Below are positions 12,301 through 23,500 of a stretch of 64,000 bases of DNA, in pieces. The notes beneath the pieces were generated by a model. The model made no database searches and was not told where the DNA came from. It saw only the letters and a list, made by a program, of their open reading frames with translations. The position numbers and the translations under genes were made by a program. This DNA comes from Okamejei kenojei (Eukaryota): the NCBI GenBank assembly GCA_035221665.1, contig CM069137.1:76694001-76758000 (forward strand), given 5' to 3'. Positions within the stretch are counted from its first letter, which is position 1; every line of letters starts with the position of its first letter.

Positions 12301-14356
12301 ATATTTGATTAACAATTTGTTAATAACAACTGTATTTCAATGTTGAAGATGTTTCCATTTTAATAAAATGTTTTTACACTGTGAAAGTGTATATAAAATG
12401 ATGTTTTGTATGGTTTATACCATCACATCTTTACACTGAGGTAATTTTATAATATATATATGTACGTACCCCTTCTTTATTGGAGTTACTTTGGGTGCAA
12501 ACCTAAAATCATTTTTTTAGGTTTTCTTATACAGGTGAACCAATTTCTACTACAATTTTTTGTAGTCCTTAGTTATATTAAATTAATGATCATAATACAC
12601 CTGTAATTATGATAATTAATTTTGGAGATTTCATCAACTTATTTTGTAACAAGTTGTTTGCACCTCTTCAACGTACTTCAAGCCTTCTTTTCCCAATTAT
12701 ATGGGTTCAGATAAGGCTATGTTGGATAATATTTATTTATCATACTTTGTTTTGATCCATTATCAAATCTTTATATTGTATCATAATTTTTCCCCCCCAA
12801 AGTTTAAAGACCAATAGTCTGTTCTTTTGTAATCAATGTTTTGATTTATCATAAGGCAGGTTTTATTCCATAATAATCAGGAGTTTAACATAACCTGATT
12901 TGTATTGATCTGCAAATCTAGAGTGCAGATTAGGTCCCTATACAATTACATATATATAACTAAAATTAATATTATATATTTCTTCCCATTGAGCTCCACA
13001 AACTGATGGCAATTTATTTTTATTTTAAATGTATTGGTTATTTGCACAATGTTTTCCATTGAATAGTGATGCCATGCACCAGTTTGAAATACTTTGAAAT
13101 CGTATTTCCTTATATCTCATATAATTGAGACATGGATATCATAAACGGATTCACCGTTGATATCCTTATAAAACATAAAAGTTTTATCATATTCTGCTGT
13201 TTCAACCATAACAGCTTTGGTGAGACCAATTAATTTTTGGTTTCCATGTTTACTTTCCATGGCCTCACTCATTCATTCGGGTATCGTACCTAGTACACCT
13301 CTATATATATATTTTGTGCTGAGGTGTACCTGAATAAAACATAAAAGTTTTATTTTATTCTGCTGTTTTAACCATAACAGCTTTAGTGAGAGACCAACTA
13401 ATTTTGGTTTCCATGGTTATTTTCCATGGCCTCACTTCTTATTCAGGTGTNNNNNNNNNNNNNNNNNNNNNNNNNNNNNNNNNNNNNNNNNNNNNNNNNN
13501 NNNNNNNNNNNNNNNNNNNNNNNNNNNNNNNNNNNNNNNNNNNNNNNNNNNNNNNNNNNNNNNNNNNNNNNNNNNNNNNNNNNNNNNNNNNNNNNNNNNN
13601 NNNNNNNNNNNNNNTTATGACCAGCCACCACTATCAGTGCACTTTTAGGGTCAGTTTTCCATTTTGTTTTTACTGCCCTTGTTACTCCTGAGTTTTTCCC
13701 TCAAGGAGACTACCTCCAAACATATCTGAGGTAGATATTTCCACAATATTTCATCATATATATTAATATATGAAACCCCCTTAGGGTAGGTTAGGGAATG
13801 TTTTTGGGCCTTTTAACCCTTTTTGGTTGAATTATTGATTTTTTTTTTTTTTTTTGGAATCTTTTTCCATTATTTTTTAGTCTGAAGGCCTTTTATTGAA
13901 CCTTTTAAATTATGGCCTTTCTGACTTTATTAAATTCCCCCCCCCCCCCCCCCCCCCCGCCAAAAGTTTGTTGGAGCGATTAAAAATCTTCCTAACGTAA
14001 TTTTGACGGCCACCGGTATAGGAACCGGCTCCGTAATCTCCCGTCCCGATCGCTTCCCCTGGGACGTTCTTTTAAAAATCTGTTGTTTTTAATCAGAGTA
14101 TTTCCTTTTTATTTTATTTTAACTTTTACTTATTTTTTGCTTTTAAAATTCGTTTTAAATCCTGGTGTTCAATACCAGCCACAGAGGTTTTAGACCCTGA
14201 AAGGTTTTCAACTGTACTTGCCTGCGGGCCCGTACCTACCGCTGTCGAGGAGCTGCCTCTGCAGCTCATGCTCTGCCGTCAGCGTCGACGTAATGCCGTT
14301 CCAGCGCCAGGCGGGGCTTCTTCACGTAGTCACTCACGTGACTCCGAAGTAAAATA
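9345..14356 (-). mobile_element. DIRS1-type tyrosine-recombinase retrotransposon: intact termini and ICR, decayed RT/MT/YR
   Basis: Perfect 36-bp ITR 9418-9453 / 14293-14328; ICR 9573-9685 complementary to both ends; relics VYLDH (12130-12141) and LLITHKKPH..SRWLK..HSVK (10065-10204). Confidence 0.9.
13168..13440. repeat. imperfect 166-bp-period duplication next to an assembly gap (N 13451-13614)
   Basis: ATAAAACATAAAAGTTTT...CCATGGCCTCACT begins at both 13168 and 13334. Confidence 0.85.
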
Positions 14357-15398: not shown

Positions 15399-16513
15399 TC
15401 ACAAACAAATTCAGTTTTACTTTTCTAATTCTCAAGGAGGTCCAATAATATAAACTAAACACTACTTATCTAAATAAAGTTATTGCATAGGGCATTATAA
15501 TGTTGGAACACAGTGTAATTTTCAATGTGCTAATTTCTGTTGTCAATGCCCTAAGAACAAATAACATTAAATATAATTCTACGACTACCACACAAAACCA
15601 GTGCATCCCATGGAAAACCTCCTTGGGTTAGCACTGCTTCTACATAGGAGAACTTGGAATAGTTTGCTGACATGAGGGTATGACCAGGTTGATGTATTTA
15701 TACTATTCAAGAAGTCACCATGCTAGAAACAGGGCAATATGGTTATACAAAGTAATGGCCGCTTATACTTTGTATTCATCATTGATTATCTTGTCTATGT
15801 TAAACAGTGATATGACATAGTCGGTTCATTGGCTGTTGTGATGGTATTCGCAGGAGGGTATTTGCAAATAGCATCACAAGGCTAGCCATCTAATTCCACA
15901 AACTCGTAGGTTGTCTTCAGCAGGGAGCCTCTCCACCTGCTGAGGTATTCTTAGACATCAACATTGCGTTGAGGCACAAATTTTAGTTCCAAGTTAAACA
16001 AGGTAATCGTCCTATTCAAACTTTCCCCTGCTAACTATCAGTTTCAAAGTTGCAATGAAAATCTCATGAAACACAAGGTACAAAACTTGCATAACCGTTT
16101 AGACCGGCTATATACAGTATGTACATGTCACAGAAAATGGTAAAAAATTCCTAAATCAAGTGCAATAATTCTTTACTGCACAATCTATCATTTGTTCAGA
16201 AATTGTCAGGTTCGGTATAAATGCATGGTGTCAAGTCAGGTACAAAAAATAAAATAATATATACAAGTCAGATTCAAGTTCATTACAATTACAATATCTA
16301 TTAATTTTCCAGTTTACACAATGCCCCTCACAGTGGGAACCATTGTGGGGGGATGTTTTTCTGTTTATTGTTAAATTCTTTAATGTTGTGTCTTATTTTT
16401 ATTGCTGTGCTGCAGATGGCAAGTCAAATTTCACTACACCAATTGGTGTATGTGGTAATAAATGTCCTTTGTCCTTTGTTTAGCTTACAACGTGTGTTGT
16501 CAGATTCAAATCT

Positions 16514-17189: not shown

Positions 17190-17369
17190 CTGTAGAACAT
17201 AGAGTATCACGCATCACACGATAATTGATCAAGGAAAACCATCAACATATTTGCATCTAGTTTAAATTTTAAATCGTGTACAGTATTTTCAAGTGAAACT
17301 TTGTTCTATGTTGTACTAAAGGATGTTCTATAAAATGCCAAGATAATAAACAGAGAATAAGAGGTGGTG

Positions 17370-20204
17370 GGTTTCTTAGATATGTATATGTTAATGCTAG
17401 GAGAATTGTAAGAAAGGTGGATGAGCTTAGAGCCTGGATTGACACCTGGAAGTATGATGTTGTGGCGATTAGTGAAACATGGTTGCAGGATGGCTGTGAT
17501 TGGAAACTAAATATTCCAGGATTTCGTTGCTTCAGGTGTGATGGAATTGGAGGGGCAAGAGGTGGAGGTGTTGCATCGCTTGTCAGGGAAGATATTACAG
17601 CAGTGCTTTGGCAGGATAGATTAGAGGGCTCGTCTATGGAGGCTATTTGGGTGGAACTGAGAAATGGGAAAGGTGTAGCAACTCTTATAGGGGTGTATTA
17701 TAGACCGCCTAATGGGGAGTGAGAATTGGAAGAGCAAATATGTAAGGAGATAGTAGATATTAGTAGTAAGCACAAGGTAGTGATTGTGAGAGATTTCAAT
17801 TTTCCACACATAGACTGGGAAACACATTTTGTAAAAGGGCTGGATGGTTTGGAGTTTGTAAAATGTGTGCAGGTTAGTTTATTTGCAGCAATACATAGAG
17901 GTACCTACTAGAGAAGGGGTAGTGCTGGACCTCCTGTTAGGAAATGAGACAGGTCAGGTGGTGGAGGTATGTGTTGGGGAGCACTTCGGGTCCAGTGATC
18001 CAGGGTTCAATATAATTATGGTGAAGGTCAGAACTGGTCAGAAGGTCAGAGAAGGGTTGAGATTTTTGATTGGAGAAAGGCTAACTTTGAGGAGATGCGA
18101 AAGGATTTAAAAGGAGTAAATTGGGACATTTTGTTTTATGGGAAGGATGTAGTAGAGAAATGGAGGACATTTAAAGGTGACATTTTAAGAGTACAGAATC
18201 TTTATGTCCCTGTTTGGTTGAAAAGAAAGAGTAATAATTGGAAAGAGCCATGGTTTTCAAGGGAAATTGGTTCAGAAAAAGAGAGAGATTACAATAATTA
18301 TAGGCAGCATGAAGTAAATTAGGTGCTTGAGTATAGAGAATGTAAAAAGAATCTTAAGAAATAAATTAGAAAAGAAGATATGAGGTTGCTTTGGCAAGTA
18401 AGGCGAAAGTCAATCCAAAGGGTTTGCTACAGCTATATTAATAGCAAAAGGATAACGAGGGATAAAATTGGTCTATTAGAGAGTCAGAGTGGACAGCTAT
18501 CTGCAGAGCCAAAAGAGATGGGGGAGATATTGAACAATTTATGTTCTTCGGTATTCACCAAGGAGAAGGATATTGAATTATGTGAGGTAAGGGAAACAAG
18601 TAGAGTAGCTATGGAAACTATGAGGATCAAAGAAGAGGAAGTACTGACACTTTTGAAAAATATAAAAGTGGATAAGTCTCCAGGTCCTGACAGGATATTC
18701 CCTAGGACATTGAGGGGAGTTAGTGTAGAAATAGCAGGGGCTATGACAGAAATATTTCAAATGACATTAGAAATGGGAATGGTGCCGGAGGATTGGCGTA
18801 CTGCGCATGTTGTTCCATTATTTAAAAAGGGTTCTAAGAGTAAACCTAGCAATTATGTAAACCTGTTAGTTTAACGTCAGTGGTGGGCAAATTAATGGAA
18901 AGGATACTTAGAGATAATATATATAATCATCTGGATAACAGGGTCTGATTAGGAACAGTCAACATGGATTTGTGCCTGGAAGGTCATGTTTGACTAATCT
19001 TCTTGAATTTTTTGAAGAGGTTACTAGGGAAAATGATGAGGGTAAAGCGGTGGATGTTGTCTATATGGACTTCAGTAAGGCCTTTGACAAGGTTCCACAA
19101 GGTTGGTTAAGAAGGTTCAATTGTTGGGTATTAATAGTGGAGTAGCAAGATGGATTCAACAGTGGCGGAATGGGAGATGCCAGAGAGTAATGGTGGATAA
19201 CTATTTGTCAGGTTGGAGGCCGGTGACTAGTGGGGTGCCTCAGGGATCTGTGTAGGGTCCATTGTTGTCTGTCATATACATCAATGATCTGGATGAAGGT
19301 GTGGTAAATTGGATTAGTAAGTATGCAGATGATACTATGATAGGTGGTATTGTGGATAATGAAGTCGACAGAGAGATTTAAGCCATTTGGAAGAGTGGGC
19401 TGAAAGATGGCAGATGGAGTTTAATGCTGATAAGTGTGAGGTGCTACATCTTGGCAGGACAAATCAAAATAGGATGTTCATGGTAAATGGTAGCGAATTG
19501 AGGAATTCAGTTGAACAGAGGGATCTAGGAATAACTGTGCATAGTTCCCTGAAGGTGGAATCTCATGTAGATCGGATGGTAAAGAAAGCTTTTGGTGTGC
19601 TGGCCTTTATAAATCAGAGCATTGAGTATAGAAGTTGGGATGTAATGTTCAAATTGTACAAGGCATTGGTGAGGCCAATTCTGGAGTATGGTGTACCATT
19701 TTGTTCGCCAATTATAGGAAAGATGTCAACAAAATAGAGAGTACAGAGGAGATTTACTAGAATGTTGCCTGGGTTTCAGCACCTAAGTTACAGAGAAAGG
19801 TTGAACAAGATGGTCTTTATTCTTTGGAGCGCAGAAGGTTAAGGGGGGACTTGATAGAGGTCTTTAAAATTATGAGAGGGATAGACAGAGTTGACGTGGA
19901 TAAGCTTTTTCCATTGAGAGTAGGGAAGATTCAAACAAGAGGATTTGAGAATTAAGGGACAAACGTTTAGGGGTAACATGAGGGGAACGTCTTTACTCAG
20001 AGAGTGGTAGCTGTGTGGAATGAGCTTCCAGTGGAAGTCGTGGAGGCACGTTCGATTTTATCATTTAAAAATAAATTGGATAGGTATATGGACGGGAAAG
20101 GAATGGAGGGTTATGGTCTGATGGGACTAGGTGAGAGTAAGTGTTCGGCACGGACTAGAAGGGCCAAGATGGCCTGTTTCCGTGCTGTAATTGTTATATG
20201 GTTA
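17370..20204 (+). mobile_element. near-complete CR1 ORF2 pseudogene in the titin Mex4-Mex5 intron, antisense to ttn
   Basis: VNARRI..KVDEL, AISETWL, GVYYRPPN, KSPGPD, MDFSKAFDKVP, SGVPQGS, YADDT, 3' tail; multiple stops and frameshifts. Confidence 0.95.
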
Positions 20205-20502: not shown

Positions 20503-23500
20503 AGGTTGGTTGTCTTTTAGCCATTCAACCTCTGGAGAAGGATCTCCTGCAATTTCACAATTAAACATCACCTTTTCTCCTTCATTGACATTTTGGGATT
20601 TGGGCTGCTTTATGAACTTTGGGGCATTTGATTCTTTTTGCTTAATGGTTAAATCAAATTGACATTTAACTATTCCATGTTCAGTTTTTGCTTCACAGGT
20701 GATTGTGCCTTCATCTCTGAAACTGATGGTTTTGATAGTTAAAGTGTGGTCACTTCCAGATACACCATATTGATAGTCTTCTGAATTGGTAAGCTCAACA
20801 CCATTTGCAACCCATTTCACACTGGATGCATTTGGTATGCTGGCCTTGAGAATGGCCTTTTGACCATCAACTGCATTAATCTGTACACGTGTAGCTGTAA
20901 TCTCTGTGTACGATGTTTTCAGTTCCTTTTTCACAATTTGTTCCTGAACTACCTTTGCTTCTCCAAGCGACTTAGCTACAGTTTTTTTCTGAGTAGCTTC
21001 CTTTGATTCAGCTAACTTGGTCACTTTGTTGACAATGTTTTTGAATACTTGACCAACAAAGGAAAAAGTTGTTTTGGAAACTCCTCCCTCACCGGTGATT
21101 TCACAAGTATATTCGCCTTCATCAGTTTCATTAATTCCATAGATACTTAAGGTGTAGACACCATTTGCAGCATATTTCAATTTGTAATGACTGTTTTCTC
21201 TTATTTTACATCCATCCTTAAACCAAGTTAATTCTTTCACATTCAGAGCTGTGCTTTCAACTGCACATGCTAGTTTTACAGAACCATCGTCAGAAACTTC
21301 AGCTTTCAAAGCTTGAGAAATCTTAGGTGGAGCACTTGCCGGGATCTCCACTCGTTCTGCTGAAGGCTTCCTGACAGTTGGTGGAGATTTAACTCTTGGA
21401 AATGAACTGACTGGTTCTGGTGATTTGATTCTCTTGGAAGTTTTTGTTCCCTCAAAAGATTTTGTTTGAGGTTCAGGGACCTTTCGCATTGGCTCTGCTA
21501 CAATACCCACTTCCTTTACCCCTGCCCTTCGTATTGTCAGAGTAAAATGTGCTTCTTGTTTTCCTTCAGAATTTTCTACCATCACTGTATAGCTTCCTTC
21601 ATCAGATGATTGAACTGATGTAATTGTAAAGGTAGATTTATACTGTGTTGTAACAATAAGTAAATGTTTAGAAGTTGTAATAATTCTTCCCCCATGCATC
21701 CAAGTCACAGTGGGTGTTGGCTCACCATCAGTGCCACAAGAAAATCTAACAGATTCTCCCTCTGCTACTGTGACTGATTGTGGTTTTGTTAGTATTTTGG
21801 CAGGAAGAGTTCGCTTAGATGCATAAGCTGCCTTTTCCTTTGAATCATAGAGACCGTAGCTGATCGATTCCTTTATTTCGGATTCTTTTGTTTTAGTTTC
21901 TTTTGTCTCTTCAAATTCTGCAGATTTTCTAATTGTAGATATTTGGTAAAAATCCGTTTTTGTCAGTTCAGGTACAAGTGATTTTGGTGCTTCCTCATCT
22001 CTACGGCGAGACAAGTAGGTAAGGTAGTCACCTCCTGTAATATCTAATGTTGCATAGTCAGAGGCCTCACCTTTATAATTGGAACAAACAACACGATAGG
22101 TTCCACTATCTTCAGCTTGACAATCCAGAATTTCCAGTGTCAGGACACCAGTCATATCAGTAAAACGATACTTGTCACCCTCTTGAATTTCTTTACCATT
22201 GTGGTACCAACTAACTTCAGATTTTGGCTTGGACAGAATATTTAGAGTAAATCTTGTATTTTGACCACGCGGGATGCGGTGAGAACGCATTCTCAAAGTT
22301 ATACGTGGACCATGGTCAAGGCTGAAAGGCTCTTGAGTAATAACTTCATATTTCTCTTCTGAAGTTCTTTGAGATTTTAAAGCAGTTTTCATTGACTCAT
22401 ATCGTGAAAAGATGTCAAATCTAGCAGTTCTTTCAAAGCGTGAAAGTGAACTCTCTCGAGACACAGGGCTGGGTGAACGAGGCCGGGTTCTCTCGGGTGT
22501 GGGTGAGCGTCTTTCTAAACCTTCACTTTCAAATTCGGTAGGACGTGTTCGAGATCTGATCAGTTCAGAAACAGGTCGCATTAATTCAATGTAAGTTGGG
22601 GAAAGTGATCTCCTTCTCCTAAGAAGCCTTGAGACAGATGGGGATTCTTGACGAACATATTGCTTAACCTCGATGGCTTGTTGTTCTTCCTCTTCTGATT
22701 TTGTTACAAATATCTCTCTTTCTCGTCTACGTTTGATCCTTGCTTTTTCCTCATGTTCCATGTACTCAAGTTCTTTTCGGTAGGTTGACAATCTCTGAGT
22801 GGTAGCAACTGGCCTAAGGAGCTCGTCGTCTTCTATGTCTTCCATCATTCTTTGTCTTTGCTTTGGGGGTTTATAAACAGCTTTGTCATGTCGCTGCTTG
22901 AGATCTGTATAACTAGGGCCAGCTTCATATTTGGAAGGGATGTGATATTTTTGGTAGCCGGTATATTTTTCCTCTTTTTGTGCTGCGGCTAATTGTGTCT
23001 GTTTAGATCTTTGCTGAAGGGCTAATAATTCAAAACCGGGAGGGCTACGGCGCGGAGGTGATGCAGAAAATCCTAATTCAAGCTCCTCCTCAAGACGTAA
23101 TCTTTCCTCCTCCACTCTTTTCATTGAGAGATAGTCATCAACAGGTAGAAGTAAATCGTCTTCTGACATGTCCCCAAGTGATCGCCTTCTTGGTCTGTAA
23201 TACATTTCGTAGTCAGGTGATGGGGTTCGCCTCCGAGCTGGTCTTACTGTTTCCAAATCATCTTGTGACAGTTTTGGAATTCGCCATTTGGGTTTATACT
23301 GATCGGTAAAGCGTGGCAATGGCATAACGTAAAATTGCTCCCATCTTGACAGACGAATTCGTTTTGGCCGTTTTGTTACAATTCTTTCCAATGGTGCTGG
23401 CATTTCATATTGGTCTCGCAATTTCCTATACCATTTCATGTCTGACAAAGGCACAAACTGTTTAATATCTTGATTTTCTTCCATTACACTTGCTGCATGA

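Follow-up and report, generated by a model that had tools for sequence, protein, structure and literature searches.

The M-band region of mammalian titin comprises ten domains, M1 to M10, encoded by the six exons Mex1 to Mex6 (PMC6922384, Introduction). In this arrangement M7 lies between is5 and is6 and is split by an intron, and PDB entry 3PUC is given as titin M7 in PMC6922384. According to the legend of Fig. 1 of that paper, M7, M8 and M9 are missing from zebrafish and salmon titin. Where PMC6922384 and PMC5123623 list the partners of M-band titin, these bind to is2, is4, is7, M9-M10 and M10, and none is listed for M7. Our literature search, in which subscription papers were thinly covered, returned no report of M7 loss outside teleosts; papers on chicken or frog titin might depict it.

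We analysed a 64,000-nucleotide stretch of the Okamejei kenojei genome (the window), the minus strand of which contains the 3' part of the titin (TTN) gene. A single stop-free frame (26409-20494, minus strand, as for all titin features below) codes for A169, A170 and the kinase, followed by the M-band as far as half of M9. The A169-A170-kinase-M1 block is evident from a match to 6ygn (E = 1e-290) and from the Pfam domain order, and the nine I-set stretches that Pfam finds in the frame correspond to A169, M1 to M6, M8 and half of M9. The exon itself, equivalent to Mex1 and Mex3 fused, spans 26378-20503 (5,876 bp) and is bounded by AG and GT. It is followed by exons equivalent to Mex4 (second half of M9; 20426-20273, after a 76-nt intron), Mex5 (is7; 17189-16914, after a 3,083-nt intron) and Mex6 (M10 and the stop codon; 16812-16514, after a 101-nt intron). 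The original prediction of four exons and nine Ig domains for the M-band agrees with these boundaries, and a contig carrying the same organism code (X6, study P3) skips exactly the three introns. The splice joints of the last two exons are also seen in a contig from organism D (X17). The is7 exon, which is alternatively spliced in mammals, is included in both X6 and X17. A decayed, high-copy LINE-like element lies antisense to titin in the 3,083-nt intron (about 17340-20200, plus strand); it gives an endonuclease family match (E = 2.4e-06) and very high depth, and the coverage of one run, X18, is confined to this repeat.

Orthologues of M4, M5, M6, M8 and M10 follow one another in titin order, each within a starred clade of a tree built from 62 domains and 91 columns. 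M5 (21804-21532) is 66% identical to hamster M5 and has titin M5 (1nct) as its top PDB match, M6 (21333-21052) is 58% identical to its hamster counterpart and M8 (20907-20632) 62%, with clade values of 96/97 and 100/97 for M6 and M8, respectively; the first half of M9 (20631-20503) shows 67% identity over that half. M6 and M8 are separated by 48 codons (21051-20908) within the intronless exon, as had been predicted, and the I-set scan that had been proposed for this interval, run with Pfam over 20881-21120, returned no Ig family. When the whole window was queried with five M7 sequences, among them a hamster domain that itself matches 3PUC, the outcome was generic Ig matches only, at 40% identity or less among each query's top matches. 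Queries with M5, M6 and M8 matched their own positions at 49-66%. Neither Pfam, nor the M7 queries, nor the tree revealed in the window an M7 of the mammalian kind, placed between is5 and is6 and split by an intron. The window gene is a real, spliced titin without Ig domain M7.

The implied rarity of this layout did not hold up. Among 519 fetched proteins, in which rows are redundant and do not represent species counts, M6 leads straight to M8 in 43 and M7 is present in order in 47. The named records without M7 include 15 birds with an intact linker, a gecko, a cobra, three turtles, the frog Leptobrachium, and Scleropages (examples are Cuculus, Corvus, Naja, Pelusios and Sphaerodactylus). Furnarius is a further bird of this kind with a broken gene model, and the model of the turtle Gopherus has a shortened linker. 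As birds, reptiles and frogs also lack M7, its loss is not special to this animal, and an M-band with ten domains typifies mammals, not vertebrates at large. The titins of hamster, langur, Albula, Sinocyclocheilus and Fundulus do carry M7. The linker between M6 and M8 measures 48 residues in the window, 43-46 in frogs, 60-64 in birds and reptiles and 78 in Scleropages. The fusion of exons is also common to birds and frogs, because the genomic frames P0003, clustering with birds, and P0005, clustering with a frog, each extend within a single frame from A169 up to the M9 intron.

Teleost titin copies drop different M-band domains, with layouts M5-M7 (no M6), M5-M8 (no M6-M7), M5-M9 (no M6-M8) and M6-M10 (no M7-M9), the last of which matches the published absence in zebrafish and salmon. 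These uneven losses are suggestive of complementary loss after duplication. Teleost KSP counts reach 29-37, compared with two in the window. Proteins from Arapaima (P0325) and Scleropages (P0314) retain at most a stub of the first M7 strand before is6, which reflects either a faulty gene model or a further loss that broke at a different point.

The manner of the loss can be approached from the ends of the missing segment. In 35 mammal-like and teleost-like proteins, genomic frames end at one same point inside M7, which marks the intron, and a mammal-like protein (P0351) is a separate frame holding is6, M8 and half of M9. In alignments, the first ~22 residues of the window linker match the beginning of is5 and the remainder matches is6 of teleosts and of birds and reptiles, which places the join near 20995 (± ~15 nt). 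These features favour the first option of the original prediction, the deletion of M7, Mex2 and two introns with joining of Mex1 to Mex3. A single in-frame genomic deletion, reaching from is5 as far as the Mex3 start, would have removed the ancestral M7 together with both introns, and since it would have joined the end of the conserved post-M6 helix to the start of is6, Mex1 and Mex3 would have become one exon. The M6-M8 stretch would thereby have been shortened without removal of any known anchor.

A different route, which we regard as rather unlikely, would begin with the splicing of a phase-1 donor, located immediately past the M6 helix, to the Mex3 acceptor, followed by replacement of the genomic stretch with a reverse-transcribed copy of that mRNA, so that M7 and both introns disappeared at once. 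Such a donor can arise just after M6, because many teleost frames end ~20 residues past it, and the position near the 3' end of the gene fits the bias of retro-mediated intron loss towards 3' ends. The route would also predict the join close to the Mex3 start that is seen in the window and in birds and reptiles; such clustering of breakpoints is expected anyway, however, because only deletions confined to the interval from the helix to M8 would be viable. Frogs, moreover, lose more of is6, Arapaima retains its M7 stub, and the 76-nt M9 intron, only 400 nt downstream, was retained.

The is6 segment measures ~98 residues in mammals and ~39 in Albula, and alignment suggests that the long form is a mammalian feature and that the window mostly keeps an is6 of ancestral length. 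The expectation that the is6 proteolysis region would change is accordingly weak, as it mostly reflects an expansion for which mammals are the outlier. Cleavage in is6 is reportedly the subject of a 2015 paper by Charton.

As its second option, the original prediction had proposed that bony vertebrates gained M7 later, the window then showing the ancestral state. This is very unlikely, because the titins of hagfish (P0413) and amphioxus (P0442), both gene models unchecked against DNA, carry a domain of M7 type that is followed at once by an is6-like linker, M8 and M9. The six M7 rows of the tree (amphioxus, hagfish, Albula, Sinocyclocheilus, hamster and langur) form one clade, not starred and of moderate support (91/88), that includes no row from the window. 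The amphioxus domain is only 32% identical to hamster M7, which it matches with 71 bits, against 56 for M6. From this grouping and the hagfish and amphioxus domains, M7 is likely to predate the jawed vertebrates and its absence to be derived. The late gain is favoured by the moderate support of the M7 clade and by the sample, in which M6-M8 is spanned by no identified sequence from a shark, chimaera, coelacanth, lungfish or salamander and an M7 was not directly observed in any cartilaginous fish. Elephant shark primers, 11 of 12 of which match the window at 0-4 mismatches of 18, as befits a cartilaginous fish, bear indirectly on this point: those numbered a190, a193 and a194 fall in M6, M9 and M10, which leaves two numbers between M6 and M9. 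In PMC12241362, the source of these primers, the A-band domain structure of elephant shark titin is called 'almost identical' to that of human. The primer numbering hints that this species has retained M7, bearing in mind that it may be copied from human.

If M7 is ancestral, losses can be counted on the standard vertebrate tree. Since mammals and teleosts keep M7, those in frogs, in birds and reptiles, and in the lineage of the window are separate, and the linker lengths differ by lineage as separate events predict. At least three independent losses are thus likely, with more in teleost copies.

Contigs (not raw reads) from four sequencing runs were aligned to the window, and three of the four runs cross the junction. 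Over 20908-21050, where inspection of transcripts had been proposed, the spliced contig X6 runs ungapped; it is 41,426 nt long and covers 22400-20503 with 13 differing letters. The junction is also crossed ungapped by a DNA contig of 6,279 nt from organism B (X10) and by X17 (1,174 nt). A protein 95% identical over the exon (P0002) and its cluster members P0242 and P0243 share the 48-residue linker of the window. That the junction was created by collapsed or wrongly joined sequence in this assembly can be practically dismissed, even though the junction evidence consists of contigs rather than raw reads and an N run is present elsewhere in the window, since the contigs that cross it ungapped come from three other studies under three organism codes and the three proteins carry the same linker. 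The M7-less junction is real, is spliced into mRNA and is common to close relatives. The N run comprises 164 N (13451-13614) and lies downstream of the titin gene. At position 16467, a short tandem unit in the 3' UTR, X6, X10 and X17 all have 11 bases more than the window, which reflects either allelic variation or a minor error of assembly.

The binding regions of titin are all kept in the window (kinase, is2, M4, the KSP-bearing is4, is7 and M10), and as no partner is listed for M7 in the sources above, M7 is likely to be mainly a spacer; the absence of partners may also mean that M7 has been little studied. Its loss would be expected to affect M-band spacing. Taken together, an in-frame deletion of an ancestral, mainly spacing M7 with two introns, as one of at least three independent losses, is an account that we hold with good confidence. 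Birds, reptiles, frogs and this animal would then represent natural in-frame deletions of M7, in which the same loss of a domain plus introns recurs within one gene, and this should be considered when chicken, frog or fish serve as M-band models. Truncations in the same M-band exons cause early myopathy (PMC5123623); we predict that in-frame removal of M7, unlike these, is tolerated.

Each of the losses of M7 is likely to have spared a helix beside M6 for which the predicted fold resembles that of the spring modules in myomesin. In the window, this putative amphipathic helix (21054-20989, the start of is5) is modelled as packed on M6, and M6 with its helix (21333-20989) superposes on My10 with its own helix at 16-20% identity; the same module is predicted for a mammal-like titin. 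In the models the helix follows the Ig domain immediately and in the myomesin orientation, its start aligns in sequence with the myomesin helix, and the conserved F, I and V at helix positions 3, 6 and 10 fit the IgH interface (350-600 Å2, first three turns). M6 as a single domain scores 19.9 bits against My10, below titin I-band domains (28-32 bits), and the My10 match extends into the helix. The motif was found after none of the other domains searched (0/166 M4, 0/187 M5, 0/9 M7 and 0/109 M8 rows), and it is kept after M6 in zebrafish- and salmon-type titins without M7-M9. A helix joined directly to the next Ig domain of a repeated array was not seen in either model, as a disordered stretch comes next; in the window model the linker region (residues 120-148) has pLDDT <50.

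We therefore propose, giving the idea slightly less than even weight, that M6 of jawed-vertebrate titin, mammals included, may be a myomesin-type Ig-helix module, a so far unrecognised site of helical strain absorption or of docking, and a limit that independent deletions of M7 and of M7-M9 did not cross, with M7 a disposable spacer and M6 maybe a jawed-vertebrate addition, possibly related to myomesin. In the hagfish and amphioxus models, M5 leads to M7 through a linker of 70-88 residues with no match to M6. As M6 is missing there, it may be an addition of jawed vertebrates, or these gene models may miss it. An Ig-helix fold, if real, would move the boundary of the unsolved domain M6, for which a 2019 model used plain M-band templates, and M6 would allow elasticity based on a helix to be tested directly in titin. 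The helix of a myomesin-type module would be expected to unfold reversibly at low force.

Compared with known systems, the window titin shares with mammalian titin the kinase, M1-M6, M8-M10, is2, the KSP-bearing is4, the is7 exon, the M9 intron and M10 in the last exon, but it differs in the absence of M7, in having four exons instead of six and two KSP motifs instead of five, and in a distance from M6 to M8 of 48 residues rather than the ~245 of hamster. With the titins of birds, reptiles and frogs it shares the M6-linker-M8 order, whereas their differing linker lengths represent different junctions in separate lineages. Zebrafish (A5X6X5) and salmon titins, as described in PMC6922384, resemble it in having lost M7 and kept the helix after M6; these fish, with two titin genes, have also lost M8 and M9, which the window retains, and other teleost copies, without M6, M6 and M7, or M6-M8, are unlike it. 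The myomesin modules My9-My12, for which PMC3279516 describes an Ig domain with a packed helix, are the closest counterpart of the predicted M6 module, which would stand singly and be followed by a disordered linker instead of a further Ig domain.
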